Below are positions 5,340 through 52,778 of a DNA stretch of 64,000 nucleotides, one piece after another (within the stretch, counting starts at the first letter, position 1; every line of letters starts with the position of its first letter). The stretch is from Methanocorpusculum sp. (GTDB lineage Archaea > Halobacteriota > Methanomicrobia > Methanomicrobiales > Methanocorpusculaceae): positions 1,472,820 to 1,536,819 of the forward strand of contig OZ245878.1 in assembly GCA_965229365.1 (NCBI GenBank), written 5' to 3'. The notes beneath the pieces are model-generated. The model was given only the letters and a program-made list of their open reading frames with translations. It did not search any database and was not told where the DNA came from. A program made the translations under genes and the position numbers.

Positions 5340-6684
5340 GAGTCTGTCCAATCGTGGATTCTGTGATATAAACTCATCCCCCATTTACTCTTGTCGACTT
5401 TTTTGGAGGGGAACAATACCTTTATGTATCCCTGCGCCGAGTGGTATGTCTGAATTTCAAGACGAATACGAACGTATTTTCAACAATGGAGTCATCCCTC
5501 CAGATATGTCCATTTGCTGGCTCATGTCCCAGCTCAACATTAGTGACATTGTACGAAAAATCGAACAAACTTATTATTCACCTCATCTTCGCGATTATTT
5601 TCATTATCCCATTGATTTTCTGATAAAACTGACTGTTGTCATGACTTATCGCAGAATAGCCTATCGTCATATTAGGCGTAAAATAACGGAAGAAGATCTC
5701 AGACACCTTCTTCCGGCAAAATCACCACTCTGGTTACCTTCGCCGAGTACGTTGCATTACTGTGTGAAATATCGGTTAGGTGAGGAGGGTATGGAAGTTC
5801 TTATGTTTTTGATAAGCAAAAAGATTGTCCATTTCCTCAAATCCGAAACCGAGGTAATTATCGATTCCACTCCTTTAGTTGCAAGCCGTTATTGTCCCAA
5901 TAGTCTGTTTAACCCTCATTATCAGGTTAAAATGGATAAAGCACATATTTTGAATCTGGGGGCTTATCCCTTGTTTATGATTCATTCAGAAGGAACGGAG
6001 AATGACAAACCCTATGCGCATTTTTTGATTCAGATTGCCGAACTTCTCGGCGTATCCTGTGATCGTGTATTGATGGATGCGGGATATGACTCCCTAGAGC
6101 TACACACGTTAATATTTGAGAAACTTCATGCAAAACCCCTTATTCAACTAAGATCTGACGCGCAATTGTCCCAATTAGGTTCAGAGAAGACCATAATAAA
6201 ACAGATCAATACGTTCTGGAGAAAAGGAGTAAATGCCCAAATGTCTCTTACAGAAAAACTGGTATTTCTCTGCAAGAATGGTAAACGGGAGATGGTAGGA
6301 GCATATCTCAGAAATCAGACTATTCTTCATGGAAGGGAGGTAAAAGATGCTATGAAAAGGCGGGGAACGCGCGAACGTAAGCATGCACACCTCAAAAAAA
6401 CCGTCAAATTTGATGTGGTGCATTGCAAGAAAAACAACAGAGCGCTCTCTGCAATAATGAATTTTATAACGTTCCAATTATTGATGTTAGCCCATTTACA
6501 GAATAGATTTCAGAATATGAATTTTGCAAATTATCGATAAAAAGTCTAAAGAAGTCTGATTTGGCAGATTCCCTCCCAATCCCATGTCAATAGTGAAACG
6601 GTTTAATCATGATATTCCTAGGTGAAGTTATCTCGATCAAAAAAAACTCTGTCCAATGGATTGACGTATCGATTGGACAGACTC
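5340..6684 (+). mobile_element. IS element copy 1 (1345 bp) with perfect 15-bp terminal inverted repeats GAGTCTGTCCAATCG
   Basis: Left end gagtctgtccaatcg at 5340 and right end cgattggacagactc at 6670-6684. One DDE transposase ORF. Three near-identical copies elsewhere in the window. Confidence 0.85.
5446..6540 (+). CDS. DDE transposase of the repeated IS (IS4/IS5-superfamily-like; DSTPL ... LMDAGYDS motifs), intact copy
   Basis: 364 aa ORF; the only copy of four with an uninterrupted frame and ATG start. Confidence 0.75.
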   Translation: MSEFQDEYERIFNNGVIPPDMSICWLMSQLNISDIVRKIEQTYYSPHLRDYFHYPIDFLIKLTVVMTYRRIAYRHIRRKITEEDLRHLLPAKSPLWLPSPSTLHYCVKYRLGEEGMEVLMFLISKKIVHFLKSETEVIIDSTPLVASRYCPNSLFNPHYQVKMDKAHILNLGAYPLFMIHSEGTENDKPYAHFLIQIAELLGVSCDRVLMDAGYDSLELHTLIFEKLHAKPLIQLRSDAQLSQLGSEKTIIKQINTFWRKGVNAQMSLTEKLVFLCKNGKREMVGAYLRNQTILHGREVKDAMKRRGTRERKHAHLKKTVKFDVVHCKKNNRALSAIMNFITFQLLMLAHLQNRFQNMNFANYR

Positions 6685-13506: not shown

Positions 13507-14726
13507 TTACCCGAACATCGATCTAAGAACTCCTTTGACCCCGACTCTGCCGAATGTTCCATACAAAGAGGGCTTCATCATAAGTCTCTTCAGCAGATCG
13601 GAAGGCCGATCCATATCCCCGTAACGAACGATCAGATCAAGAATCTCCGAAGTATTCATTGCATCGATCGCCGCATCGATATCCTCAGAATCCAGGTTCC
13701 GGGGGAATTCCAGAGCCTTCAGACCCATATCAAGTTCACGACCAAAATCACCGCGCCAGAGGGTTTCATATGCTGAAAGAAATGCATCCGTCGTGTCTCC
13801 GGCCTCCACTGATTTGACTGCGGTCTCGGTAGCAAACCGGGCAGAGCGGATCCCTGTATACACTCCACCTCCTGAAGTCGGTTTTGGAAAACCTGCCGCA
13901 TCTCCGATAAGCATGCAGCCATACCCAAACGTTTTACGCCAGATCCCCATTGGAATCGTGCCCGTTACCGAGTGGGTGGTGCTTCCTGGAAACTGGGCGA
14001 GAAATTTTGCAAAAAGGTCAGGTACATTTTTCATTCCGCAAAGACCCACTCGTGCTCTTTTTTCGGACAGAGGGATGACCCAGGCAAAAAAATCTGGAGC
14101 GGCGTTTGGATGAAGTTCGACGAGCGAAGTATTCCCATCCCAAGGAATTTCAGCCTGGATCCCGGAATAAATACAGGGCGACGGTGGGATCCCAAGACTT
14201 CTGGCAACAACACTCCGCGGACCGTCTGCTGCAATCAAAATAGTATAGGGGATTTCCTCCCCGCCGGCAGTATGAATGATTTTTTTCCCGGATTGATCTT
14301 GGTGACGCATGTCTTGAGAGAAAATTCAGCGCCGATCTCAGCAACACGAACGGCGATCTCATGATCGAGTCTGCCTCTGTCAACAACATATGCATTCGTC
14401 GTTTTTACATAGAAAGAAAGGGAATGACCCTCCGATCCACAGATTTTCGCTCCGCGAACCGTATTATACACGGACCGGTCCGACACTTCGCATTCGGCAA
14501 AGGCATTATTCGAAAGGAGACCGGCACACTGTACAGGATACCCTAACGAAGCATGCTCTTCAAGAACCCGGGTGGAAAGACCTGCTTTCGCACAAATTCG
14601 CGCAGCAGTCGAACCGGCTGGTCCGCCCACTATGACGATAACATCAGACACGTATGATTCATTTGGTCGTACTAAAATAAAAATAAATGGGAGTTCCAAC
14701 AAAGATTTCGGTAAACTGAAGGTCAT
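13507..14726 (-). CDS. geranylgeranyl reductase family flavoprotein (archaeal lipid/tocopherol-type GGR), frame broken once
   Basis: FAD motif VIVIVGGGPAGSTAAR at the N-terminus. ORFs 14235..14726 and 13507..14310 are the two halves, joined across an A/T mononucleotide run near 14280-14290. Confidence 0.7.
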
Positions 14727-15547
14727 ATCCCGCGTTTCTTCGCTTCATCATCTACAGAACACTTCATGCTCCGGACATATCTCCTGAGCTCAGCGAGCAC
14801 CCCTTCCTTATCCCCGAGATGATCCTCGATTCTGCCGACAATAGCGCTGCCGACGATAACCCCGTCGGCTCCGTGAAGAACGATCTCCGCAGCATGTGCC
14901 GGCTCTGAGATCCCAAAGCCAACTGCCACGGGTATTTTGGTCCGCGCTTTGACGCGTTCAAGAAGCGGGAAGGCATTTTTCGAGATCTCGGCTCTTTTCC
15001 CGGTGACGCCAAGAGAGGAGACCAGATAGATAAAGCCGGAAGCTAACCTGACGATCATATCGAGCCGCTCGTCAGATGTCGTCTGTGTCACCAGAAAAAT
15101 CTGTGCGATCCCGGTCCACTCAGAAGCTTTCAAGGCAGGCTCAATTTCTTCCGGTGGCATATCGACGATCAGCATCCCATCGACACCGGCCGCATTTGCC
15201 TCATCATAGAACCGGTCAATGCCCCGCCGGAAAACGATGTTACAGTAGACCAGAAACACGATCGGCACATCCGAGTAGCTTCTTACCGCTTGCACGATCT
15301 CAAACACACCGTCTGTTGTAATGCCGGCATCGATCGCCCGATTGTCCGCACTCTGGATCACGCCTCCGTCGGCAACGGGATCGGAAAAGGGAACTCCCAA
15401 TTCCAAAACATCGCAGCCTCCGTCGATCAATGCTTTCGCGATCTCGATCGAATCGGAGAGATTTGGATCGCCGGCAACGGTGTATCCAACGAAACCGGGT
15501 TTTGCAAACGCTGCAGCAACCCACTCTTTTCCGGATTTTTCCGGCAT
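14723..15547 (-). CDS. trpA: tryptophan synthase alpha chain
   Basis: 274 aa; [14 protein letters not shown] ... GFGIS motifs; start ATG overlaps the trpB stop region. Confidence 0.9.
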
Positions 15548-16741
15548 TACTACTCACCCCGAACATCTTTGAAACCGACGAGACATCCTTATCCCCTCTT
15601 CCGGATAAGCATATGACCACGATATCGTCAAGGTCGAAGGAATCCCTGTTTTTCAGAACATACGATACCGTAGGGGCCGATTCAAGAGCAGGAATGATCC
15701 CTTCCGTTCGCGAAAGATAGGAGAAAGCCTCAAGAACCTCGTCATCAATCACGTAGGAATACTCGACACGGTTCAGCTCTTTGAGCATACTGTGTTCTGG
15801 CCCGACGCCTGGATAGTCAAGTCCGGCCGAGATGGAATGCATCACGCCGACCTGCCCGTCCTCATTCTGGATAAGATAGGAGAGAGCTCCATGCAGGACC
15901 CCGGGACTGCCGGTGTTCAGCGTCGCCCCGTTGTTTCCAGGAGTAAGGGCACGTCCTACTGCCTCCACGCCGACCATCCGGACATCGTCATTCAGCATAG
16001 GATAAAACATGCCGATAGCATTCGAGCCGCCGCCGACACAGGCAACAAGCGTATCCTGAAGCCGGCCTTCCTTAAGAAGACACTGACTTCTGGTCTCCTC
16101 ACCAATGACAGACTGGAAATCCCTGACGATCATGGGGAAGGGATGAGGGCCCACGACCGAACCGATCAGGTAGTGGGTGTAGTCGACGATCTTTGACCAT
16201 TCGCGCAATACCTCGTTGGTTGCATCCTTCAGTGTCTTTGTTCCTGAACTGACGGGATGGACTTTGGCCCCCATGAGTTCCATTCTGAATACATTCATTT
16301 TCTGTCTCTCGCAGTCTTCCTCGCCCATAAACACTTCGACAGGCAAATTGAGAGCCGCTCCGGCAATTGCCGTTGCAACGCCGTGCTGTCCGTCTCCGGT
16401 TTCTGCGATCAGGCGTTTTTTCCCATGGCTTTTGCAAGCAGAGCCTGTCCAAGGATGTTGTTGAGTTTATGCGCCCCGCCGTGGACAAGATCCTCACGCT
16501 TGAGATAGACCTTACATCCGCAGTGCTCGGACATATTCCTGCAGAATGTGAGAGGGGTCTCACGTCCGGCAAACTCCGTCAAATAGGAGTTGAGTTCAGC
16601 CTTGAATCCCGGGTCGTATTTTAATCTGTGGTACGCGTCGTCCAGCTCGTAGAGAGCCGCCATGAGTGTTTCGTGGACGAATCTTCCGCCGAACTCTCCA
16701 TAGTATCCTGTTTTTTCTATCATACTGTTGGTCTCCTGCAA
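15548..16741 (-). CDS. trpB: tryptophan synthase beta chain, frame broken (at least two breaks)
   Basis: ORF 16409..16741 (N-term, [12 protein letters not shown] region) and ORF 15300..16346 (GGGSNAIG ... SGRGDKDV). The break at about 16416-16421 is an A6 run where [11 protein letters not shown] needs one more A. The 3' end runs through its stop into trpA because of a further shift near 15580. Confidence 0.85.
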
Positions 16742-17298
16742 ATTTCTATAAATTCCCGCATCTTTTTTCTGTCTTTGATTCCCTTTGACTTTTCAACGCC
16801 GGATGAGACATCGACGGCATACAGACGAAGATCTCTGATGGCGTCCACTAAATTGTCGGGTGTTAAGCCGCCGGCAAGTATAACGGGAACCGCCGACTTT
16901 TCGACTACATTTTGGGCATAACTCCGGTCGTACACGATTCCATGGCCGCAGCTCTCATCGATTACAACCGCATCGCATTTCTCGGGAATGCCGGTCTCTC
17001 CCGACGCCACGCGGTAAATTTTAGTTCCGACTCCCGCCGGAACCTGCAGATTCTGGGGAATCTGAATGTCAGTCGGCTTGAGGGAGAGGATGAGTTCCAG
17101 ATCGCTTTGACTTTGGGTGTTGGTAACGCAGATCTTCTCGGTGTTAGGATGAAGGGCGGCGAAGATCTCTCTTGCACGGCTGACCGGAACCGAACGTTTC
17201 GAATCCGAACAGACAACAATTCCGATAGCATCGGCCCCTTCTTCTTCCGCGATTAAAGCATCCCTTACCGTGGTGATCCCGCATATTTTTACGCGCAT
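16720..17298 (-). CDS. trpF: phosphoribosylanthranilate isomerase
   Basis: 192 aa; MRVKICGIT ... DAIGIVV pattern. Confidence 0.8.
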
Positions 17299-18055
17299 AC
17301 GAATGCCTCCAGGGTTTTTTGCGGATTCACAGATTTCATCAGGGCGGTTCCGATGAGAAAACCGTCACATAAGTTTTTCAAACCAAGGATATCCTCCGGT
17401 ATTTTGATGCCGCTCTCGGAGATCACGGTGAGACCCGCTTCTCTGAAAAGGGGTGAGAGGTCGATCGTTGTTTTCGTATCGACCGACATGTCATGGAGAT
17501 TCCTGTTGTTTATGCCGGTAAGCAGTGCCCCGGATTTTATAGCATTTTCCGTATCTGCCCGGTTCCTGACCTCGACCAGCGGCTCAATATGCAGAGACCG
17601 GCAGAGGATGATGAACTCTTCAACCCGGTCACGCAAAACATCGGCTATCAGAAGCACCGAATCGACCTGCAGGGCACAGGTTTCGTAGATCTGCTTTTCA
17701 TCGACGATGAAATCCTTTTTCAGGATCGGAAGCCTGGTCCCGGGTTTTGCTTTGGTGAGATTCACCGCATTTCCCGAGAAGTAGAAAGGTTCAATCAGAA
17801 CGGAAACGGCACATGCCCCGCCTGCTTCATAGAAGCGGGCGAAGTCGGCCGGTCCAGCCCTGAGTCAAGGGTCTTGTCCGAGGGGGTTTTGTATTTGATC
17901 TCGGCGACAACCGCATTTTTCCGGCCCTGGCAGTTTTTCACAGCGTTGAGGAGACTTTGAGGGACATGATCCATTTCTTCAGCGGTTTTTCTGATCGAGG
18001 GATCGATCAGTGCTGCCCTTTTCCGCGAAAGGTCACAGATGTCATCAAGAATCAT
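17289..18055 (-). CDS. trpC: indole-3-glycerol-phosphate synthase, frame broken
   Basis: ORFs 17795..18055 (N-term) and 17289..17765 (PILKKDFIVDEKQI, IGINNRNL) belong together; breaks around 17800-17880. Confidence 0.75.
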
Positions 18056-19066
18056 TTCGGCCTCCGGAAAGGAGAATCAGATTCTCCAGTTTCTCGAGCG
18101 CACGACCCGAGTCTATGGATCTTTCCGCAGATTTGATCCCGTCCGCGATACTTCCTGCCTTGTCTCCAAGGTAGATTGCAGCCGCGGCATTGAGGATGAC
18201 GATATCTCTTCTCGGGCCTTCTTCACCCGCGAGAACCGATCTGATGATCCGGGCATTGTACTGAGGATCCCCCCGAAGAGAGAGGCGGCATCAGCTCTTG
18301 GAAACCCGAAGGCTGATGCGTCAAGAGAATAACTCCGGACATGACCGTCGTTCACCTCAAATACATGGGTAATGCCGGTCGTTGTTATCTCGTCATATCC
18401 ATCACCGTGAAGAACCATTGCCCTTTTCGTGCCAAGAATATTGAGAACATCAGCGATCTTTTCCGTGAGTGAAGTATCATAGACTCCAAGCAGCTGGGCA
18501 TCGGCACCGGCAGTATTCGAGAGAGGGCCGATAAGATTGAAGAAACTGCGGATACCGATCTCCTTTCTGACCCTGCCCGCATACTTCATAGCAGGATGAT
18601 GGCTTTGGGCAAACATAAATCCGATGCCGTTTTCATCGATTATTTCACAGACTCTTTCCGACGAAATATCGATTTTTATCCCAAGTGCTTCCAGAACATC
18701 GGCGGATCCGCACTTACTGGTTGCTCCCCGGTTTCCATGCTTGACGAAGGTGACTCCGGCTCCAGCCGCAGTGAAAGCCGCTGCCGTACTAATGTTGAAG
18801 GTATTTTTTCCATCGCCTCCGGTGCCGCAGGTGTCAACGAGCATGCCGTTTCATTTCGGAGTGATTTGGACGGCATTCTCCCGCATCACGGATGCAAAAG
18901 CAGCGATCTCGGCACTTGTCTCGCCCTTCATAACAAGGGCCGTCAGGAATGCGCCGATCTGACTGTCTGCAGCATTTCCCGCCATGATATCCTGCATTGA
19001 TCCTTTCGCCTCGAAAATACTCAGATCTGAGCGTGACGAGACTTTTTTTATGCATTCTGCAATCAT
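18040..19066 (-). CDS. trpD: anthranilate phosphoribosyltransferase, one in-frame TGA plus one homopolymer frame break
   Basis: ORF 18851..19066 is the TrpD N-terminal helical domain (QIGAFLTALVMKGET), not TrpG. In-frame TGA at 18851-18853 just before DTCGTGGDG. C-terminal 80 aa recovered by adding one C to the C-run near 18265. Confidence 0.8.
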
Positions 19067-19159
19067 CTGACCACTCCTATGTCCAGAAAATTTTTCATGA
19101 TTTTGTCGCCCGACTCCGTGAGTAGGTGAAACTGTCGTAACAGTCGATTACCAGAACGT

Positions 19160-20657
19160 TCATGCGGTTTCACCCGCTGACTCGATGGCGGCCTTCATGC
19201 TCGCGGCCTTGTTTTCTGACTCAATAAACTCGGATGCCGGATTGGAATCTGCAACGATGCCTGCTCCCGACTGGAAATACGCAGTTTTGTCTTTTACCAC
19301 AACGGTCCGAATTAGGATCGCAAGATCCAGATTTCCATTGAATCCAATATAACCAACGGCCCCGGCATATGGGCCACGGGATGTCGGTTCAAGTTGGTTT
19401 ATGATCTGCATGGCGCGTATTTTCGGTGCCCCGGACACGGTAACGGCAGGAAAACACGACATGAAGGCATCGAAAGATGTCTGGTCGTCCGAAAGGATGC
19501 CCTCAACGGTCGATACGATGTGCTGAACATGGGAGAATTTTTCAACCGACATAAAGTCAGTCACCCGAACGCTTCCGTATCTGGAGACGCGGCCGATATC
19601 GTTTCTCGAGAGATCGACAAGCATCAGATGCTCGGCACACTCTTTTTTTATCAACTAAGAGTTCCTTTTCCAGCTCGATATCCTCTTTTGCATTCTTCCC
19701 GCGCTTTCTGGTGCCGGCGATTGGAACCGAGGTGACCTGCCACCCTTCCACTTTGATCAGCATCTCGGGGCTTGCGCCGATGACCTGTTTGTCGGAGAAG
19801 TCCATGAAATACATATAGGGACTCGGATTTAGTCTTCTCATCTGCCGATAGATCTTGAATGGATCGCCTTCATAGGACACCGCGCATTGTTTTGAGATGA
19901 CGACCTGGAAGATATCTCCGTTGAGAATGTACTCTTTTGAAGTTCTCACAAGATCTTCGAACTCGGTTTCCGATAGGCTGGATGTATAAGTTGATCCTGC
20001 TTTGCCCATGTTTTCGCACGGGAGTTTCTCTTCAAGGGACGCCAGCTCGCAGAGAGTTTTTTTTGCTGTGGATATCTGACGAAGGGCCTCGGCATATCCG
20101 GATTCGATGTCTTGCAGATTCGTCCCGAATAAAAATCTGAGAATGGTGATCGTTCCCCGAACATGATCGAATATGACATACTCTTCCGGCATCATGAACT
20201 CGGTAAGAGGAAAATCACGCGGTTTTTCTTTGATGCCGGGAACACTAAGGGTTTTGAGCGCAAGATCATACGAGAAGTATACGGCAAGACCGCCTGCATA
20301 TCCGGGAATGTCCGGACTTTGATACTCGATGCAGCGTAACAGTTCGTTGAGTGATTCCGCGGACACGTCCCGATCTTCAATTCCTTTTGCAGGGGTGTAT
20401 TTTCCTCTGAGTGCCTCATATGCAGAGGCAGGCGAGATTCCCGGGTCAGTAAAGGTAGTATAAACGGGAATCAGCTTATTGGCCGTTAAGGTCTTTTTGA
20501 GTTCAGGTAATTCCTCTCTTGAGGGAAAGACCGGATTTGGACTATATTCCCCGATTATACCAGTTTCCATTCCACCGGCATCACCATCCGATTCGTATTG
20601 ATTGATTGCATAATTCACAATAATTGTTGTCTGTTGCACACATACATTACTGTACAA
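19160..20657 (-). CDS. trpE: anthranilate synthase component I, frame broken
   Basis: ORFs 19557..20657 and 19160..19654 (chorismate-binding C-terminal domain, GAPKIRAMQII ... GYIGFNG); break at a T/A run near 19641-19650. Confidence 0.85.
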
Positions 20658-23150: not shown

Positions 23151-24495
23151 GAGTCTGTCCAATCGTGGATTCTGTGATATAAACTCATCCCCCATTTACT
23201 CTTGTCGACTTTTTTGGAGGGGAACAATACCTTTATGTATCCCTGCGCCGAGTGGTATGTCTGAATTTCAAGACGAATACGAACCTATTTTCAACAATGG
23301 AGTCATCCCTCCGGATATGTCCATTTGCTGGCTCATGTCCCAGCTCAACATTAGTGACATTGTACGAAAAATCGAACAAACTTATTATTCACTTCATCTT
23401 CGCGATTATTTTCATTATCCCATTGATTTTCTGATAAAACTGACTGTTGTCATGACTTATCGCAGAATAGCCTATCGTCATATTCGGCGTAAAATAACGG
23501 AAGAAGATCTCAGCCACCTTCTTCCGGCAAAATCACCACTCTGGTTACCTTCGCCGAGTAAGTTGCATTACTGTGTGAAATATCGGTTAGGTGAGGAGGG
23601 TATGGAAGTTCTTATGTTTTTGATAAGCAAAAAGATTGTCCATTTCCTCAAATCTGAAACCGAGGTAATTATCGATTCCACTCCTTTAGTTGCAAGCCGT
23701 TATTGTCCCAATAGTCTGTTTAACCCTCATTATCAGGTTAAAATGGATAGAGCACATATTTTGAATCTGGGGGCTTATCCCTTGTTTATGATTCATTCAG
23801 AAGGAACGGAGAATGACAAACCCTATGCGCATTTTATGATTCAGATTGCCGAACTTCTCGGCGTATCCTGTGATCGTGTATTGATGGATGCGGGTATATG
23901 ACTCCCTAGAGCTACACACGTTAATATTTGAGAAACTTCATGCAAAACCCCTTATTCAACTGAGATCTGACGCGCAATTGTCCCAATTAGGTTCAGAGAA
24001 GACCGTAATAAAACAGATCAATACGTTCTGGAGAAAAGGAGGAAATGCCCAAATGTCTCTTACAGAAAAACTGGTATTTCTCTGCAAGAATGGTAAACGG
24101 GAGATGGTAGGAGCATATCTCAGAAATCAGACTATTCTTCATGGAAGGGAGGTAAAAGATGCTATGAAAAGGCGGGGAACGTGCGAACGCAAGCATGCAC
24201 ACCTCAAAAAAACAGTCAAATTTGATGTGGTGCATTGCAAGAAAAACAACAGAGCGCTCTCTGTAATAATGAATTTTATAACGTTCCAATTATTGATGTT
24301 AGCCCATTTACAGAATAGATTTCAGAATATGAATTTTGCAAATTATCGATAAGAAGTCTAAAGAAGTCTGATTTGGCAGATTCCCCCCAATCCCATGTCA
24401 ATAGTGAAACGGTTGAATCATGATATTCCTAGGTGAAGTTATCTCGATCAAAAAAAACTATGTCCAATGGATTGACGTATCGATTGGACAGACTC
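23151..24495 (+). mobile_element. IS element copy 2 (1345 bp), same 15-bp inverted repeats; flanked by AATAAA on both sides (possible 6-bp target-site duplication)
   Basis: gagtctgtccaatcg at 23151; ...ggacagactc at 24486-24495; flanks ...ataaataaa / aataaattg. Confidence 0.8.
23257..24352 (+). pseudogene. transposase of IS copy 2, frameshifted (ORFs 23257..23901 + 23888..24352)
   Basis: gatgcgggtatatgac here versus gatgcgggatatgac in copy 1. A non-homopolymer 1-nt insertion splits the frame. Confidence 0.7.
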
Positions 24496-24559: not shown

Positions 24560-25186
24560 ATGCCGAAACTCATTCCCCAGTATAAAGATGAGGCAAAAAG
24601 GAAGATTGTTCTTGCAGCATTAGAGGTGATGGCAGAATCTGGATATGACAAACTTACAATGGATGATGTCGCAAAAAAGCTTGGAGCTACAAAAGGGGCA
24701 ATTTATTGGTACTTTCAAAATAAAAATGCCTTAATTCAGGAATTATTAGAAACAATCGACACAGAATTTAGACAGATAGCAGATGATCCTTTTTTTGATC
24801 AAATGAAGAATATCATTATTCCCCCTGCATTAAATCGTCTGGTATTTAATGACGAACTGAAAAAAGAAATATTTTATGAAATTGGTTTTTTAAACAGCCC
24901 AAAAGCTGACATACCCCTCACAAATCCCAAATTTCTTACGGAATTAATTACAATTTTGGAGACACAACTAGCATACGAGCAAAAAAAAGAGCAACTGCCA
25001 TCATTATCTGATAAAAAAAATCTAGCATTGAGTTTGGCCGTATTATTTTCAGGTTTGCAAAGAGGGGAGATATACACAATCCTTTTTTTCGGACGGACAA
25101 GAATCCAACAGATGTGGTTCACTGCCATGAAAAAATTATTAAATTGTGAATTGGCAATCAATCTGATTAAAAAATATTCAGTATGA
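24560..25186 (+). CDS. TetR/AcrR-family transcriptional regulator
   Basis: 208 aa; N-terminal HTH LTMDDVAKKLGATKGAIYWYFQNK. Markedly AT-rich (about 35-37% GC by eye) relative to the flanking genome. Confidence 0.8.
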   Translation: MPKLIPQYKDEAKRKIVLAALEVMAESGYDKLTMDDVAKKLGATKGAIYWYFQNKNALIQELLETIDTEFRQIADDPFFDQMKNIIIPPALNRLVFNDELKKEIFYEIGFLNSPKADIPLTNPKFLTELITILETQLAYEQKKEQLPSLSDKKNLALSLAVLFSGLQRGEIYTILFFGRTRIQQMWFTAMKKLLNCELAINLIKKYSV

Positions 25187-25238: not shown

Positions 25239-26579
25239 TCTGTCCAATCGTGGATTCTGTGATATAGACTCATCCCCCATTTACTCTTGTCGACTTTTTT
25301 GGAGGGGAACAATACCTTTATGTATCCCTGCGCCGAGTGGTATGTCTGAATTTCAAGACGAATACGAACGTATTTCAACAATGGAGTCATCCCTCCGGAT
25401 ATGTCCATTTGCTGGCTCATGTCCCAGCTCAACATTAGTGACATTGTACGAAAAATCGAACAAACATATTATTCAACTCATCTTCGCGATTATTTTCATT
25501 ATCCCATTGATTTTCTGATAAAACTGACTGTTGTCATGACTTATCGCAGAATAGCCTATAGTCATATTCGGCGTAAAATAACGGAAGAAGATCTCAGCCA
25601 CCTTCTTCCGGCAAAATCACCACTCTGGTTACCTTCGCCAAGTACGTTGCATTACTTTGTGAAATATCGGTTAGGTGAGGAGGGTATGGAAGTTCTTATG
25701 TTTTTGATAAGCAAAAAGATTGTCCATTTCCTCAAATCTGAAACCGAGGTAATTATCGATTCCACTCCTTTAGTTGCAAGCCGTTATTGTCCCAATAGTC
25801 TGTTTAACCCTCATTATCAGGTTAAAATGGATAAAGCACATATTTTGAATCTGGGGGCTTATCCCTTGTTTATGATTCATTCAGAAGGAACGGAGAATGA
25901 CAAACACTATGCGCATTTTTTGATTCAGATTGCTGAACTTCTCGGCGTATCCTGTGATCGTGTATTGATGGATGCGGTATATGACTCCCTAGAGCTACAC
26001 ACGTTAATATTTGAGAAACTTCATGCAAAACCCCTTATTCAACTGAGATCTGACGCGCAATTGTCCCAATTAGGTTCAGAGAAGACCATAATAAAACAGA
26101 TCAATACGTTCTGGAGAAAAGGAGGAAATGTCCAAATGTCTCTTACAGAAAAACTGGTATTTCTCTGCAAGAATGGTAAACGGGAGATGGTAGGAGCATA
26201 TCTCAGAAATCAGACTATTCTTCATGGAAGGGAGGTAAAAGATGCTATGAAAAGGCGGGGAACGTGCGAACGCAAGCATACACACCTCAAAAAAACCGTC
26301 AAATTTGATGTGGTGCATTGCAAGAAAAACAACAGAGCGCTCTCTGTAATAATGAATTTTATAACGTTCCAATTATTGATGTTAGCCCATTTACAGAATA
26401 GATTTCAGAATATGAATTTTGCAAATTATCGATAAGAAGTCTAAAGAAGTCTGATTTGGCAAATTCCCCCTAATCCCATGTCAATAGTGAAACGGTTGAA
26501 TCATGATATTCCTAGGTGAAGTTATCTCGATCAAAAAAAAACTCTGTCCAATGGATTGACGTATCGATTGGACAGACTC
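25239..26579 (+). mobile_element. IS element copy 3; left end altered/truncated (tctgtccaatcg lacks the leading GAG), right end intact
   Basis: ...caatataatctgtccaatcg at 25239; ggacagactc ending 26579. Confidence 0.75.
25342..26435 (+). pseudogene. transposase of IS copy 3, frameshifted near its 5' end
   Basis: gaacgtatttcaacaatgg (T3) versus gaacgtattttcaacaatgg (T4) in copies 1 and 4; ORFs 25183..25518 and 25401..26435. Confidence 0.65.
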
Positions 26580-26627
26580 ATGCATAGACCAAAATCCTAT
26601 ATCATACCTCATAACATATTATTTATC

Positions 26628-28074: not shown

Positions 28075-28845
28075 ATGCCCGATTTTCAGTGTCCAAAGTG
28101 CAGCGCGGCACTTCAGGTCAAACCAGGCACACAGATGGCGACATGTTCGTTCTGTGGCACGGTCACCTATATCGATTGAAGTTCTGCGCTGTTCTTTCAC
28201 CTGCTTCCCTTCTCAATAGACGAGAGTGCGGCAAAAGGGATTTTTAAACGCTGTACTACCGGTCCCGCCCAAGCCAAGGATCTCGAAGCAACAACAAAGA
28301 TCACGAAACTTACCAAAGAGTTCTTCCCGGTATTCCGGTTCCGCCGGACAGTCAACGGCAGTGAAACCGTTTTTGCAAAACCCGCGAAAGGGACCCTTCT
28401 CCCCGGAATGCAGGACCTCACAATTCCCCCGGGTAATACTGTTGTCTATGATGCGAAAGCATCGACCGGAGATGCAGACGTGATCCAGCCGGATATTGCG
28501 ATCGATTCGTATCTTCCCGAACTCACCGGAACGCCCATTGATCAGGCACTCGTGTACTTCCCGATTTACGAAATCGCCTATGAATATCAGGGGACTTCCT
28601 ATCAGGCAGTCATCAACGGATCGTCCGGAGCGGTTTATACGACCTCGTCTCCGACCCGTAGTTCCAGCGCATACATCGCCGTGATGGGACTCGCCTTCAC
28701 GTTAGGTCTTCTCGGCAGCATTCTCGGCGTTATGGTGAATCCGATCTTTTTCGTTCTTATCATTGCCGGATTTTTCGCAGGAAAACTTCTTGCGGGTAAA
28801 GTGGTCGAGCGGCAAAAACCCGGTCAGGGGGTGAAGGCAGAATGA
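28075..28845 (+). pseudogene. zinc-ribbon / repeat-motif / C-terminal TM-anchor protein, paralog 1; single reading frame interrupted by one TGA at 28177-28179 between the zinc ribbon and the body
   Basis: CPKC...CSFC zinc ribbon (34 aa). In-frame TGA, then an uninterrupted frame through ORF 28408..28845. Motifs FFPVFRF and LVYFPIYEIAYEY; C-terminal hydrophobic helix. Confidence 0.5.
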
Positions 28846-29753
28846 GCGAAGCACAGAAGAATCTTGTTTCGATGACTTGCCCGTCGTGCGGAGGTCAGGT
28901 GCAGTGTGAAGAAGGAGAGGATCTGGTTTTCTGCAAATTCTGCGAATCCGTGTTCGCACTGACGACGGACGAGGGTGCAAATAAGGTCATGTACAAAATG
29001 ACCGTCGATAAAGACAAGGCCCTTGCAAAAGTCAAGGCATGGTTCGGGACCGGCCCGAAAGCAAAAGATCTGCAGAAGACGGCGGTGTTTACCGAGGCAT
29101 ACCCCATGTATCTTCCGTTCTGGCTTCTGATTGCCAGAGGAAAGGCCTGTGTCTACGATATCGAAGAGCAGAGAACGGGAAAAGATAATCAGAAGGTCGA
29201 GATCCCGCGCGAGGCACTCGTCAACCGCGAGTACATCTACTCGGAGATTGCCTGTGAGGCGGGAGATCTGGGGATCCAAAGCATAGTGATTCCGGACCGT
29301 GCCGAGGCAATTTCTTATGACGATCAGGAGATCGTCACATTCGACGTGACCTCTTCGCGTGACGCCGCATACGAAGAAGGCGACAGAGCGATCCGGCAGA
29401 CGGCAGACGAAGACGGAAGTGCCCGAATGGACAAGGTTCACTTCTCACAGTCGTTCTGCTTCCCCAAAGCCTTCACCCTCGTCTACTATCCGTTTTAGAT
29501 TGTCAGATACGCTTATGAAGGCAGAACTTACTTCGCAACCGTTGACGGCATCACGGGACGGGTAGTTTCCGGCAGAGCCCCGGGAGATGCCGGCAGTCAG
29601 AGTACGGCTGCAGGTATCGGCGGGGCACTTTCCGGCGGAGCGGTGGGTCTTGGAATTGGACTCGCTATCGTGACCGAAGGTACGGACATCGGGATCGGTG
29701 TTCTCGTTGTCGTAATCATCGCAGCTGTCGCGCTTCTCGGATATTTTCTATAA
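28842..29753 (+). pseudogene. paralog 2 of the same family; frame interrupted by one TAG at 29496-29498
   Basis: CPSCGG...CKFCES zinc ribbon; motifs MYLPFWLLIARG and LVYYPF*IVRYAYEG. The TAG aligns with Tyr of paralog 1. The frame continues to a Gly-rich segment and a C-terminal TM helix ending at 29753. The ATGA overlap with paralog 1 suggests translational coupling. Confidence 0.5.
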
Positions 29754-29886
29754 CAGATTAAGATATGGAGACGAGATTCTGGAAGGAGCCATGAACGGAA
29801 AAGGCCTGAAGTCAGGCAGAACCCAGAAGAAAGTACAGCCGATCTACAATGAAACATATGACTACTTCAAATGAAGGTGATGCAAG

Positions 29887-30480
29887 ATGCTGTTAAAAGA
29901 ACTTAAATGCCCGGGATGCGGCGCACCGCTCAAGTCCAAAGAGCGCGACATGATGCTCGCCTGCAGTCACTGCGGACGGATCAGTCTGTATGCTGATGGA
30001 AAAGTGGGCGATGTTGCCTACTCAATCGCGGCACCCGCAGACGGTTACTCGGGTGAACTGATCTACGTTCCTTTCTGGATCGTGAATGCCGATCTGAATG
30101 TAAAGAAAGAATCCATATCCAGCGGAAAAATTTCCAGATTTATTTCTGACAAAAGACAGATGCGGGGTAACCGCGACTTCTATGTGTGTGCAGCATCGAT
30201 CCCCGAGGAATTTTGCCGGGAATGGAATATGGAGCTGACGCTTGATCAGCCTGCTCTGAATCTCATTTCCGGCTTCAAGGGCGGCAAACGTGCAGTGATG
30301 ACGATGGAGAAAGGGATTGCCGGAGAAAATGCGGAGTTTCTGTTCCTCCGGTATGAAACGGAGATTCCCGGAACTCTCCAGAAAATGGAGTATGATTTTA
30401 AGATAAACAGCACAAAAGTGCTTTATCTTCCCGCATACAAAATCACTGACAAGTATGTATTAGGTATTTCTCATGAGTAA
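29887..30480 (+). CDS. paralog 3 of the zinc-ribbon family (intact, no TM segment)
   Basis: CPGCGA...CSHCGR zinc ribbon; motifs LIYVPFWIVNADL and VLYLPAYKITDKYVLGIS. Confidence 0.55.
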   Translation: MLLKELKCPGCGAPLKSKERDMMLACSHCGRISLYADGKVGDVAYSIAAPADGYSGELIYVPFWIVNADLNVKKESISSGKISRFISDKRQMRGNRDFYVCAASIPEEFCREWNMELTLDQPALNLISGFKGGKRAVMTMEKGIAGENAEFLFLRYETEIPGTLQKMEYDFKINSTKVLYLPAYKITDKYVLGISHE

Positions 30481-30817
30481 TGTTGAAGAGAAACGCATAC
30501 GCCTGATTTGGGCATCCATCATATTGATGCTCGGCATTTCCATTCTGGTGACATATCTTGTACCGGCTGTCGGATTCTGGGAAGGGACTGGCATCTTCCT
30601 GACAGGGGTCGGCGTGATCTCGTTTTGCCTTGCCATGTTCATGGGCGAACGGCGTTCCCCGTTTTTCCCCCTCCTCATGATCCTTGCTGGAGTACTTCTC
30701 TTGATCCAGGGACTGCTGACGACGATTTTTCCAGTCATCAGCACCCCGGTCCTGATCGGTGCAGCGCTGGTGATCGTGGCGGAAGGTGCCATTATTTTCC
30801 TGATACTGAAAAAATAA
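30473..30817 (+). CDS. small polytopic membrane protein (3-4 TM) translationally coupled to paralog 3
   Basis: Start overlaps paralog 3 stop by 8 nt (ATGAGTAATG); 114 aa almost entirely hydrophobic. Confidence 0.5.
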   Translation: MSNVEEKRIRLIWASIILMLGISILVTYLVPAVGFWEGTGIFLTGVGVISFCLAMFMGERRSPFFPLLMILAGVLLLIQGLLTTIFPVISTPVLIGAALVIVAEGAIIFLILKK

Positions 30818-30946
30818 GCGAACCATGACAGTAGATTTACGAGACAAAGTTGAGGAAGACCGCTGTCTGATCAAAAAAAAATCCAGCTCTGCGTCCCATG
30901 ATTTCGGGGATACTGGCAGAAAGAGGATATTCGTATTGCCGATTCG

Positions 30947-31366
30947 ATGCTGCGCCTACAGCTTGCCGACGAATTGAAAAAAAACGTTCTCCTGCCTCTG
31001 GAGCAGACCCGCGAGTCGGCAAGCCGGGCACTCGAGCTTGATCTGATGAACGATCTTGCTGCGGCGATCTCGCAGGCAAAGACCGCTGAAGTAAAGATCC
31101 GTCATGCCGAGCAGGGATACTCGGGCATCTCGCCGGCAACCCGTGTCAAGACGCCGGAGCTGAAAACCCTGTATGAATATGATCTCGAGTTGCTTGACGG
31201 AATCCGTGCGATCGGCGATCTTGCGAAGGCCGCATTCAGCAGTGCCGATGCAGGAAACTTTAACAAAACCGCGGACAGACTCCGGGAAATCAAATCAGGG
31301 TTCAGCGAGTTTACGGTGATATTCGACAAACGCAGCGTTGACATTGCAGGCATTGGTGCATTCTAA
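30947..31366 (+). CDS. alpha-helical hypothetical protein (139 aa), possible accessory/regulatory component of the SPFH module
   Basis: Predicted largely helical, no catalytic motifs; no alternative ATG upstream in frame. Confidence 0.35.
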   Translation: MLRLQLADELKKNVLLPLEQTRESASRALELDLMNDLAAAISQAKTAEVKIRHAEQGYSGISPATRVKTPELKTLYEYDLELLDGIRAIGDLAKAAFSSADAGNFNKTADRLREIKSGFSEFTVIFDKRSVDIAGIGAF

Positions 31367-31371
31367 TGGGT

Positions 31372-32587
31372 TTCTTCTCAAAAACAAACAAAACCATCGG
31401 CTCCGGTTCGGATATTGAGGGCGCAGAATCCAGAAAAAAGCTTCTACTGGGTCGATGATCAGAAGGGCGACAATGTCATCTGGCGTCTCCCGAGAAACGT
31501 TATGTGGAACGACAACGTTCTCGTCCGCGAGGATGAGTATGATATCTTCTTCCGCGACGGAAAAGCCCTCGTTGTTTTCGACCGGCCGGACCGATACGCT
31601 CTGACAACCGAGAACATCCCGGTCCTGAAAAGTATTCTTGGAACCGTTGTCGGAAACGTCCAGATCGGAGAGTTCTACTGGGCACAGAAGCGTGAGTTCC
31701 GGGACAAGTTCGGTACTCCGCAGCCTCTTGCATTCCGCGATGTGGACTTCGATGTTGTCCAGCTCAGAATCTTCGGTCAGTTCTCGTACAAGGTTGTCGA
31801 CCCGCTGCTTCTGATCACTCAGTTCGTCGGAACGAAAGGCCTGACGAAATCTGAGGAGATCGTCGAGTGGCTCAAATCGCAGATCGTCATGATCTTAAAC
31901 GATACCCTCGGCGAGCTGAAAGCCAAAAAGCAGATGGGTGTTCTGGATATGCCAGCATCTCTGCAGGAGATCGAACAGCTCTGCCTAGGTAAGCTGACGA
32001 CCGAAACGGAAGTTTACGGTCTGAAGATCATGAAGTTTGCCGGCCTGAACATCAACATGCCCGAAGAGGTTCAGGAAGCGATCAACAAACGCGGAGCGAT
32101 GTCGGCTCTGGGCGTGAATTATCTCCAATATGAGTCCGGAAAAGCCATTGAAGGCATCGGACAGGGAGCAGCTCAGGGAGGCGAAGGCTCCGGATTTGCC
32201 ATGATGGGTGCCAGAATGGGCGCCGGAATGAGCATGGGCGGCATGATGATCCAGAGTATGGCATGTGCCGGCGGTCAGCCGGCTCCCTTCGGCGGTCACC
32301 CGAGCGCAGGCCAGGTTTCAGCACAAAAACCGGCAGAGAAAATGGAGACATGCAGCAACTGCGGCGCCAAGGTTCCTGTGGGAACGAAGTTCTGTCCCGA
32401 GTGTGGTCAGAAGATGGTGCCGGCTACCGGTTTAACCTGCACAAACTGCGGAGCTGCCCTTGCACCAGGCACTAAATTCTGCCCCGAATGCGGTACAAAA
32501 GTCGAGACCGTCAGGAGATGTCCGAAATGCAATGCCGTGGTCCCTGCCGGAACGAAGTTCTGTCCCGAATGCGGACAGAAACTCTGA
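31372..32587 (+). CDS. SPFH/band-7 (stomatin-prohibitin-flotillin, COG4260-type) protein with four C-terminal zinc ribbons; N-terminus restored across a frame break
   Basis: MGFFSK N-terminus in frame 1 (from 31372) joins ORF 31415..32587 across the A-run at about 31424-31430. C-terminus has 4 x (C-x2-C ... GTKFCPECG) repeats. Confidence 0.7.
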
Positions 32588-33950: not shown

Positions 33951-34433
33951 TTACTTTTGCGTGTTTGCTTCCCATTCGTCCATTTTTTTCTCGAGGATCA
34001 GAGTAGCCGACCCCACAAATTTTGGACAGAGCGTTTTAAACAGACCTTTCTCCTTGATGACTGTCAGTTCATTTTCCTTCATTACATTGTACCCAAGGAG
34101 ATCCCGGCAGAAGATCGAGCCGTTTTCCGCTTTGAACGCGTCGAGAAGTTCCAGCGTTTTTTCATTCGTATCTGCCTTTTCTTCAACATCTTCTGCTGTG
34201 GAGGCGCCGTATTTCAGACCGATGACCATCAACGCACCCGTGACTGCGCCGCAAACCTCGCCGCACCGCATACCTGAGCCGAAACCTCCGGCGATTTTTG
34301 TTGCGGTCTTTTCATCGACACCGAGGTCTTTCGAGAATGAGGAAAATACCGACTGCGCACAGTTTAACCCTTGGGAAAATGTAGCTACTACTTTCTCTGC
34401 ATGATCCATACGTAAATCCCTTAAAGTTATCAC
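33951..34433 (-). CDS. C_GCAxxG_C_C family protein
   Basis: GLNCAQSV ... CGAVTGA signature. Confidence 0.55.
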   Translation of the reverse strand: MITLRDLRMDHAEKVVATFSQGLNCAQSVFSSFSKDLGVDEKTATKIAGGFGSGMRCGEVCGAVTGALMVIGLKYGASTAEDVEEKADTNEKTLELLDAFKAENGSIFCRDLLGYNVMKENELTVIKEKGLFKTLCPKFVGSATLILEKKMDEWEANTQK

Positions 34434-45788: not shown

Positions 45789-46642
45789 GTGGAATTCTAT
45801 TCACATAACAGCGAAATGGCAGAGAAAGAAGTTATCCGTGTTGAAAGACTCGGCTTTCCGTTTGCAACGGACAATCCGTTTCTTTTCTGTGCTCATCATA
45901 AGGACATGTATCCGAAAGGAGAACGAGACCTTGGTCAGGCCATCTCTCTTTCCGGCAGAAATCTGGGAAACGATTTCGTCATAAAAAACGGGTTTAGCAT
46001 GTATCACGGGCAGCGGGTCCCTGAATTCCAGGTCCATCCACACAGAGGATTCGAGACGGTCACGATCACGATACAGGGATACGTGGATCATTCTGATTCG
46101 CTCGGCGCCGCAGGGAGATATTGTAACGACGATGTTCAGTGGATGACGGCAGAATTGCACCCGTTCCCTCGCCGGCTTCGTGGTCTGCCGACCCGAAAAA
46201 TCATGTCAGAATCCTGCTCATTCGCATGGATCCGGGAGCGGAACTTCGTATCCCGGCTGTTACTCCGACGATCTCCCGTAATCTCTACTTATATGACGGC
46301 GATAAAATCGTGGTCGGAACAAAGGAGATAGGCCCATACTCGAGAATTGTTCTTTTGGGAGGCGAAGATATTTTCGTACATGCCGGAAATGCCCGATGTT
46401 CCCTGCTCCTTCTGGAGGGAGAGCCGATCGAGGAGCCGATCGCCAGATACGGACCGTTCGTCATGAACACCCCGGATGAAATCCAGGATCCCTACCGTGA
46501 CTGCCGGCAGACGGCATTTGGCGGCTGGCCATGGGATGTGCCAGACCCCGTCCACGACATCGGGGAAAACAGGTTCGCAAAGTACATCGACGGGCTTGTC
46601 GAGGAACGCCGGTCGTATCACGAACCAATGCAGGATGAATGA
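45789..46642 (+). CDS. pirin-family protein (cupin), frame broken once
   Basis: HPHRGFETVT ... GDVQWMTA in ORF 45789..46331; C-terminal cupin half in ORF 46139..46642 in another frame. Confidence 0.65.
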
Positions 46643-51433: not shown

Positions 51434-52778
51434 AGAGTCTGTCCAATCGTGGATTCTGTGATATAAAATCATCCCCCATTTACTCTTGTCGACTTTTTTG
51501 GAGGGTAACAATACCTTTATTTATCACTGCGCCGAGTGGTATATCTGAATTTCAAGACGAATACGAACGTATTTTCAACAATGGAGTCATCCCTCCGGAT
51601 ATGTCCATTTGCTGGCTCATGTCCCTGCTCAACATTAGTGACATTGTACGAAAAATCGAACAAACTTATTATTCACCTCATCTTCGCGATTATTTTCATT
51701 ATCCCATTGATTTTCTGATAAAACTGACTGTTGTAATGACTTATCGCAGAATAGCCTATCGTCATATTCGGCGTAAAATAACGGAAGAAGATCTCAGCCA
51801 CCTTCTTCCGGTAAAATCACCACTCTGGTTACCTTCGCCGAGTACGTTGCATTACTTTGTGAAATATCGGTTAGGTGAGGAGGGTATGGAAGTTCTTATG
51901 TTTTTGATAAGCAAAAAGATTGTCCATTTCCTCAAATCTGAAACCGAGGTAATTATCGATTCCACTCCTTTAGTTGCAAGCCGTTATTATCCCAATAGTC
52001 TGTTTAACCCTCATTATCAGGTTAAAATGGATAAAGCACATATTTTGAATCTGGGGGCTTATCCCTTGTTTATGATTCATTCAGAAGGAACGGAGAATGA
52101 CAAACCCTATGCGCATTTTTTGATTCAGATTGCCGAACTTCTCGGCGTATCCTGTGATCGTGTATTGATGGATGCGGGATATGACTCCCTAGAGCTACAC
52201 ACGTTAATATTTGAGAAACTTCATGCAAAACCCCTTATTCAACTGAGATCTGACGCGCAATTGTCCCAATTAGGTTTAGAGAAGACCATAATAAAACAGA
52301 TCAATACGTTCTGGAGAAAAGGAGGAAATGCCCAAATGTCTCTTACAGAAAAACTGGTATTTCTCTGCAAGAATGGTAAACGGGAGATGGTAGGAGCATA
52401 TCTCAGAAATCAGACTATTCTTCATGGAAGGGAGGTAAAAGATGCTATGAAAAGGCGGGGAACGTGCGAACGCAAGCATGCACACCTCAAAAAAACCGTC
52501 AAATTTGATGTGGTGCATTGCAAGAAAAACAACAGAGCGCTCTCTGCAATAATGAATTTTATAACGTTCCAATTATTGATGTTAGCCCATTTACAGAATA
52601 GATTTCAGAATATGAATTTTGCAAATTATCGATAAAAAGTCTAAAGAAGTCTGATTTGGCAGATTCCCCCAATCCCATGTCAATAGTGAAACGGTTTAAT
52701 CATGATATTCCTAGGTGAAGTTATCTCGATCAAAAAAAAACTCTGTCCAATGGATTGACGTATCGATTGGACAGACTC
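51434..52778 (+). mobile_element. IS element copy 4 (1345 bp), intact 15-bp inverted repeats
   Basis: gagtctgtccaatcg at 51434; ...ggacagactc ending 52778; no flanking direct repeat. Confidence 0.8.
51601..52635 (+). CDS. transposase of IS copy 4; canonical start codon mutated (ggtatAtctgaatttcaag versus ggtatGtctg), so the ORF begins at an internal Met
   Basis: Direct comparison with copy 1 at the start-codon position; otherwise full-length. Confidence 0.6.
   Translation: MSICWLMSLLNISDIVRKIEQTYYSPHLRDYFHYPIDFLIKLTVVMTYRRIAYRHIRRKITEEDLSHLLPVKSPLWLPSPSTLHYFVKYRLGEEGMEVLMFLISKKIVHFLKSETEVIIDSTPLVASRYYPNSLFNPHYQVKMDKAHILNLGAYPLFMIHSEGTENDKPYAHFLIQIAELLGVSCDRVLMDAGYDSLELHTLIFEKLHAKPLIQLRSDAQLSQLGLEKTIIKQINTFWRKGGNAQMSLTEKLVFLCKNGKREMVGAYLRNQTILHGREVKDAMKRRGTCERKHAHLKKTVKFDVVHCKKNNRALSAIMNFITFQLLMLAHLQNRFQNMNFANYR

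Follow-up and report, generated by a model that had tools for sequence, protein, structure and literature searches.

SPFH proteins are universal, and in HflK/C-FtsH, stomatin-NfeD and flotillin-YqiJ/YuaF an SPFH oligomer is joined to dedicated membrane partners, with an expected role as a microdomain or scaffold. Such scaffold pairs have also been covered by Ravi et al. (2024; PMC11237479). Membrane recruitment of the soluble, anchorless class of SPFH protein, of which YdjI is the type, is known from a single study in Bacillus, in which YdjI was soluble and its membrane foci required YdjG and YdjH (Scholz et al. 2021; PMC8581546). Here we analysed a 64,000-nucleotide stretch of contig OZ245878.1 of the archaeon Methanocorpusculum sp. 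(hereafter the window), in which positions 28075-32587 hold six consecutive reading frames on one strand, named P1, P2, P3, P4, P5 and SPFH. We consider, at a probability of about 0.65, that this locus is the archaeal counterpart of YdjG and YdjI within PspA-YdjGHI, the phage-shock or envelope-stress system of Bacillus, and is made of two linked sub-modules (the P1-P2-P3 triad and the P5-SPFH pair), and that the copy in the window has been inactivated.

A preliminary description of the locus, made from the letters of the window, had proposed a PspA-less, YdjGHI-like membrane module without a described archaeal counterpart. The idea was largely right at the level of the protein families and wrong in several details, and the death of this copy was missed. 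Our literature search found no description of this archaeal module either.

The P1-P2-P3 triad belongs to the YdjG family

The six frames follow one another with tight, operon-like junctions, as had been noted: P1 and P2 share an ATGA overlap (28842-28845), P3 and P4 overlap by 8 nucleotides (nt), and P5 and SPFH meet in a common TAATG. The first three had been taken for paralogs with an N-terminal zinc ribbon and an internally duplicated aromatic motif, and profile comparisons agreed. P1 and P2 matched each other with a BLASTP E value of 4e-17 and an hhalign probability of 99.9%, and P3 proved to be a divergent paralog (97.6-97.9% against P1 and P2) whose alignment spanned the ribbon and both repeats. 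Repeat 1 aligned with repeat 2 at 90% (E 1.4e-6), and both consist of a helix and then a strand that ends in YxPFW. The Pfam zinc-ribbon matches of P1-P3 were weak; C13, C16, C31 and C34 of the N-terminal ribbon were invariant among 71 diverse family members.

A homolog search with P2 showed orthologs 343 amino acids (aa) long. In the AlphaFold model of one of them (predicted local distance difference test score [pLDDT] 82.8), the ribbon is followed by two repeats of a helix plus a long beta-hairpin and by a short tail; residues 250-308 form a helical hairpin, after which comes a conserved cytoplasmic FRYGxE tail. Hydropathy analysis classed P1, P2 and P4 as hydrophobic and P3, P5 and SPFH as not. 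Two adjacent hydrophobic segments were present in P1 (residues 201-234) and in P2 and none in P3, and a C-terminal membrane anchor was thus found in P1 and P2 and not in P3. The most likely form of the P1 and P2 C-termini is a membrane hairpin of two helices, and not the Gly-rich linker and single transmembrane helix first assigned to them.

This is a large family, for which 4198 representative clusters were obtained at E<=1e-3. When the homolog search was repeated with the broad alignment A2, most of the sequences obtained came from Methanocorpusculum. The three hallmarks of the family are motif 1 (YxPFW), motif 2 (LVYYPxWxxRYxYxGRxYxxxVDGxxGxVxxGRAPG) and the post-membrane FRYGxE. In three proteins (P0058, P0071 and P0079) P2 and P3 are fused into a single polypeptide, with the P2 part complete including its membrane hairpin, which is evidence that P2 and P3 associate physically.

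No Pfam or NCBIfam model matched the twin-motif domain, in line with the earlier statement that it could not be assigned to any named family; however, the domain had already been noted in YdjG by Ravi et al. (2024; PMC11237479), as uncharacterised, YpeB-related and of an NTF2-like fold. Foldseek aligned the core with the YpeB C-terminal domain 5boi at E 0.58, and a Pfam PepSY match occurred in 1 of the 71 family members (E 0.008). Scans of P1-P5 with Pfam, NCBIfam and PADLOC gave zinc-ribbon matches only, apart from a weak match of P5, and when PDB sequences were searched with profiles of the P2 and P5 families, only zinc ribbons or noise came back.

For direct comparison, a Bacillus-type pspA-ydjGHI locus (L012) was retrieved by means of the ydjG primer sequence in Scholz et al. 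(2021; PMC8581546). YdjG matched the P2-family profile at an hhalign probability of 98.8% (E 4.8e-17) over 255 columns that take in the second ribbon of YdjG, MYIPFW, LLPVWMVSYDY...NGQTGKV and the membrane segment. P1 matched YdjG at 98.5%, and P3 matched it directly at 87%, through the ribbon only. The archaeal proteins thus resemble YdjG in their N-terminal C4 zinc ribbon, in the two YxPFW-type motifs of the core, in the C-terminal membrane segment and in having a Band_7_1 protein as operon partner. They differ from it in that Bacillus subtilis YdjG is a single gene with two zinc ribbons, whereas each of the three archaeal paralogs carries a single ribbon and one of the three is anchorless; furthermore, archaeal P2 has an extra second membrane helix and the conserved FRYGxE tail.

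SPFH, P5 and P4

The frame-repaired SPFH sequence matched Band_7_1 (PF13421) with E 9e-36 and 123.8 bits against a gathering cut-off of 24, and intact SPFH orthologs matched the same model. The earlier assignment as an SPFH/band-7 protein was thereby confirmed. The MGFFSK N-terminus ascribed to the protein is out of frame with its body: the start codon lies at 31366, and the body is encoded by the open reading frame (ORF) 31415-32587. Three zinc ribbons were counted at the C-terminus (six CxxC, 3 x GTKFCPECG), not four. YdjI aligned with the archaeal SPFH protein from end to end (E 7e-21) in the same domain order; both have Band_7_1, a Gly/Met-rich low-complexity linker and a C-terminal zinc ribbon and lack a membrane segment, and they differ in the number of ribbons, which is one in YdjI. 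The SPFH proteins of the HflK/C, stomatin and flotillin pairs, in contrast, are anchored in the membrane themselves, and their partners (protease, NfeD and YuaF) are unrelated to the YdjG family.

The gene in front of SPFH had been described as encoding a 139-aa helical protein, but this covers only the 3' portion of a gene for 179 aa that starts at 30825. The product of the whole gene, P5, belongs to a family conserved in archaea, with lengths of 176-180 aa and the invariant motifs PGFRGYRxxEDxRxxD and RHAEQGYxG, for which the homolog search gave 474 matches. The P5 gene was always directly upstream of the SPFH gene; the Bacillus operon has no P5 counterpart. P5 was modelled as two long helical hairpins (pLDDT 85.6) and had no match in Pfam or among PDB sequences. 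Its sole family match was to LIMLP_15305, a family named in only one paper and left uncharacterised there; the match was colinear and weak (E 9e-6), far below the cut-off.

P4 has at least three hydrophobic segments and is lineage-specific, being found only with the order P1-P2-P3-P4-P5-SPFH in Methanomicrobiales and DHVE2. It had been regarded as a stand-in for the anchor that P3 lacks. P4 was absent from 31 of 31 loci in which the P5-SPFH pair lies upstream of the triad, and therefore it is not a general replacement for that anchor.

At its core the module shares the families of YdjG and YdjI; its partners are different (three paralogs, P5 and sometimes P4).

The triad and the P5-SPFH pair are linked across archaea

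The P2 alignment A1 was scanned over one genome per species, which gave 79 archaeal loci, and these were annotated with profiles for the six proteins. Because A1 was used, the survey is biased towards those archaeal orthologs of P2 that share at least about 35% identity. The P5-SPFH pair adjoined the triad in 65 of the 69 loci with enough flanking DNA, the other 10 loci being too short to judge, and the linked loci spanned Methanomicrobiales, Methanocellales, Methanomassiliicoccales, Thermoplasmata and DHVE2. The preliminary description had proposed such a survey of neighbourhoods as a check on its linkage of the two families, and at this frequency an absence of conserved linkage is clearly excluded.

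Two gene orders predominated. P1-P2-P3-(P4)-P5-SPFH was present in 33 loci, from Methanocorpusculum, Methanomicrobium, Methanocalculus, other Methanomicrobiales, DHVE2 and one Thermoplasmata metagenome-assembled genome (MAG). P5-SPFH-P1-P2-P3, without P4, was present in 31 loci, from Methanomassiliicoccales, Methanocella and most Thermoplasmata. At one locus the pair was divergent on the opposite strand.

No further gene was conserved around the module, and Vps4, ESCRT-III and PspA were looked for among the neighbours and not found. With a single-sequence PspA profile, no match was obtained in the window or in the 79 archaeal loci (about 10 kb on each side), so that the term PspA-less holds. 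The YdjH profile (YdjH is a TPM protein) detected no linked TPM gene at the archaeal module and matched only the Bacillus-type loci L011 and L012. The Bacillus operon thus includes PspA and a TPM protein, whereas the archaeal module has neither linked to it, and "YdjGHI-like" is better given as "YdjG + YdjI-like": the homology to YdjG and YdjI stands, and the YdjH part does not.

Makarova et al. (2024; PMC11188069) described 'Meth_adaptin' archaeal ESCRT loci that encode SPFH, coiled-coil and zinc-ribbon proteins. Compared by gene content only, those loci and the present module both encode a zinc-ribbon SPFH protein of archaea within a membrane-related cluster; Vps4, ESCRT-III, adaptin-appendage-like proteins and ProX occur in the 'Meth_adaptin' loci and not near the present module.

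A different expansion of the YdjG-type family was seen in Methanofollis formosanus (L006; CP037968.1, 1790-9335), where five P2-like paralogs, mostly without the ribbon and with extended multi-helix membrane tails, are clustered without P1, P3 or SPFH.

The window copy is inactivated

The closest locus found (L001) shares 93.6% DNA identity with the window over 7.7 kb and is almost identical to that of Methanocorpusculum sp. MCE (L020). Its module is intact, with P1/P2/P3/P4/P5/SPFH of 256/343/197/114/179/406 aa; P2 of the window is 95% identical to P0001. The module is also intact in MCE, M. parvum and UBA424. Codon-by-codon comparison showed that four of the six window genes (P1, P2, P5 and SPFH), which had implicitly been taken as functional, are broken by three nonsense substitutions and three frameshifts (Table 1). 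Only P3 and P4 have uninterrupted frames. At the three nonsense sites the relatives have Arg, Trp and Gly codons; the Gly, residue 25 of P5, is invariant across the P5 family, and the Trp (Trp219 of P2) is the residue that had been written as x in LVYYPFxIVRY and is a TAG codon. The inserted T in P2 hides its last 41 residues.

In about 6 kb of flanking coding sequence (aminotransferase, hisD, HD protein, TFE, ATP-grasp protein and three others) there were zero lesions. Assuming a uniform lesion rate, we calculated a probability of about 0.006 that all six would fall inside the 4.5-kb module. Since none of the lesions lies in that flanking sequence and three of them are substitutions, we conclude that the window copy is a pseudogene cluster. 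To judge from its reading frames, it is a dead relic: six independent lesions have inactivated the module, which is no longer functional here.

Independent inactivating lesions, different from those of the window, were found in the module on two further Methanocorpusculum chromosomes, at L014 (OY781078.1, 9251-13343) and L022 (OY782579.1, 9255-13714). Taken over both loci, the damage includes 20- and 23-nt deletions in P1, stops within P2, P3 and P4, frameshifts in SPFH and the loss of 393 nt from it. Beside the L014 module, the housekeeping genes that were tested were intact, except for an FKBP match that contained stops.

Table 1. The six genes of the module and their lesions, in window positions.
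Feature	Position	Strand	Remarks
P1 pseudogene, YdjG-family paralog 1	28075..28845	+	256 aa when intact; intact orthologs in L001/L020
P1 nonsense codon, Arg35 CGA>TGA	28177..28179	+	Translation; codon comparison with relatives
P2 pseudogene, YdjG-family paralog 2	28842..29874	+	343 aa when intact, as in homologs
P2 nonsense codon, Trp219 TGG>TAG, in second YYPFW motif	29496..29498	+	Codon comparison
P2 T-run, 1-nt insertion (T4 vs T3 in L001), frameshifts C-terminus	29744..29747	+	
P3, intact gene (197 aa) of a divergent YdjG-family paralog that has no membrane segment	29887..30480	+	
P4, small polytopic membrane protein, 114 aa, intact	30473..30817	+	
P5 pseudogene, four-helix protein, 179 aa when intact	30825..31366	+	
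P5 A-run, 2-nt insertion (A9 vs A7 in L001), frameshift	30873..30881	+	
P5 nonsense codon in repaired frame, invariant Gly25 GGA>TGA	30899..30901	+	
SPFH pseudogene, YdjI homolog, 406 aa when intact	31366..32587	+	Band_7_1, Gly/Met-rich linker, three C4 zinc ribbons
SPFH A-run, 1-nt insertion, splits MGFFSK start from SPFH body	31434..31439	+	

Other features of the window

An insertion sequence (IS) element of about 1.35 kb was present in four copies, 98% identical, at 5340-6684, 23151-24495, 25239-26580 and 51434-52778. Its transposase is a DDE_Tnp_1 protein of 344 aa, which is split in the copy at 23151-24495. Two of the copies bracket a TetR-family gene (24560-25186), and synteny with L001/L020 breaks at this TetR/IS region, just upstream of the aminotransferase gene.

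The tryptophan operon (14723-20657) looks decayed. Its trpE is split into ORFs 19557-20657 and 19160-19654, which encode consecutive halves of Chorismate_bind, and trpB is split into 15300-16346 and 16099-16572; trpC is truncated to 158 aa, the second half of indole-3-glycerol phosphate synthase only. The trpA and trpF genes look intact. A pirin gene (45789-46642) is split into two overlapping ORFs, which encode the N-terminal and the C-terminal cupin domain. The split trp and pirin genes and the four IS copies fit a real, wider genome decay. A 160-aa gene at 33951-34433 on the minus strand is intact in the window and frameshifted at two T-runs in L001 (11239-11388), indicating that homopolymer-length variation disrupts genes in both lineages.

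Discussion

The homology, architecture, conserved linkage, gene fusions and pseudogenisation described above were read from sequence comparison. How the intact module might work is suggested by analogy with Bacillus, from which we infer complex formation, recruitment and a physiological role. The first sub-module is the triad, in which P1 and P2 each combine a cytoplasmic ribbon, an internally duplicated alpha+beta core with YxPFW and two hydrophobic C-terminal segments, and P3 is a soluble paralog; in the predicted topology the ribbons and cores face the cytoplasm and the hydrophobic C-termini of P1 and P2 lie in the membrane. The second is the four-helix protein P5 with the soluble Band_7_1 SPFH protein, to which Methanomicrobiales and DHVE2 add P4. 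P1, P2 and P3 would most likely form a hetero-oligomer at the cytoplasmic face of the membrane, and this oligomer would recruit and organise the otherwise soluble SPFH oligomer together with P5, for which the recruitment of YdjI by YdjG and YdjH in Bacillus serves as the model. The outcome would be a scaffold beneath the membrane that helps to organise it or to protect it from stress and that needs no linked PspA.

Several observations weigh against this reading. In the Bacillus two-hybrid assays it was YdjH, the TPM protein, and not YdjG that contacted YdjI and PspA (PMC8581546). Foldseek of the core domain against the PDB gave nothing below E 0.01, and a core fold without a significant match means that structure provides no clue to function. 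Moreover, the triad occurs without SPFH. Four of the 69 archaeal loci had no SPFH despite enough flanking DNA, and in at least two of these cases the triad is an additional copy, the complete module being present elsewhere in the same MAG (L046 with L035, L049 with L036). Loci L046-L049, from Methanocorpusculum and other Methanomicrobiales genomes (Methanocorpusculum petauri, Ca. M. faecipullorum and two MAGs holding the complete module), carry a second, SPFH-less P1-P2-P3 triad that is about 42% identical to the P2 of the module. A Thermoplasmata MAG (L004/5) has a triad without SPFH, and so do bacteria (L008, 9237-11591; L009, 9230-11585), in which genes of about 250, 350 and 160-210 aa lie in the context tmk-holB-PSP1-metG-[triad]-tatD with no SPFH within the available 10 kb upstream and 2-9 kb downstream. 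These triad-only loci indicate that the triad has a role that does not need SPFH.

The triad-only loci also bear on whether the P5-SPFH pair is a system unrelated to the triad and its neighbour by chance, as does the position of the pair on either side of the triad according to lineage, which is how a separable unit would behave. We regard chance as an unlikely explanation of the adjacency, which is kept over several orders despite rearrangement while nothing else around it is conserved; the two families are also co-operonic in Bacillus and mutually dependent for localisation, and both the triad and SPFH are damaged in all three decayed Methanocorpusculum copies, P5 being hit only in the window. 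That P5 could be a cryptic PspA- or ESCRT-III-like filament former, which would make the module a complete membrane remodeller of the PspA type, is suggested by its two modelled helical hairpins and by its place as the soluble helical partner beside the SPFH gene. The hhalign probability of the P5 profile against a single-sequence PspA profile was only 0.2%, and with no Pfam or PDB sequence match and a weak family match to LIMLP_15305 only, this idea is about as improbable as chance adjacency. Less probable still is a system for anti-virus defence or conflict. Zinc-ribbon membrane proteins and SPFH-like proteins do occur in some conflict systems, and the module has been lost in a patchy way and occurs in extra paralogous copies; but PADLOC gave only a zinc-ribbon match (E 9e-4), no enzymatic effector domain is present, and within Methanocorpusculum the module keeps a stable chromosomal site among housekeeping genes.

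It would alter the verdict on the window copy if its genes were intact and expressed, with the stops recoded as selenocysteine or pyrrolysine, the frameshifts programmed, or all lesions due to sequencing or assembly errors. All three indels do lie in homopolymer runs (T4, A9 and A6), a typical site of error on some platforms. Homopolymer error cannot, however, account for the three lesions that are substitutions to stops, at an Arg, at the Trp of the conserved YYPFW and at an invariant Gly. Selenocysteine or pyrrolysine is not known to be used in Methanomicrobiales, and the orthologs in L001, L020, L013 and L018 need no recoding. The clustering of the lesions in the module and the decay of other window genes point the same way. 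We therefore rejected recoding, programmed frameshifting and pure sequencing error on the substitutions, the intact orthologs and the clustering, and consider intact genes very unlikely.

Beyond an archaeal version of the YdjG-YdjI part stands a bolder and rather doubtful proposal, in which the triad and the P5-SPFH pair would be a self-sufficient, PspA-independent archaeal machine for membrane integrity, ancestral to Bacillus YdjG/YdjI, whose repeated, module-specific decay in some Methanocorpusculum lineages would be a sign that a protected or host-associated niche makes the machine less necessary.

For the genome at hand, the module genes in the window should be annotated as pseudogenes. 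With the archaeal version of the YdjG-YdjI part, the partnership of these two proteins appears far older and wider than Firmicutes, since it occurs in several archaeal orders without a linked PspA or TPM protein. By its sequences, the archaeal form appears to have P5 as a new, obligate partner beside a fixed set of three paralogs. The YdjG-type family, large as it is, has neither a Pfam or NCBIfam model nor a solved structure, and the five- to six-gene module offers a concrete target for structural and interaction work on it. The independent decay in three Methanocorpusculum genomes may serve as a natural experiment on when the module is dispensable.

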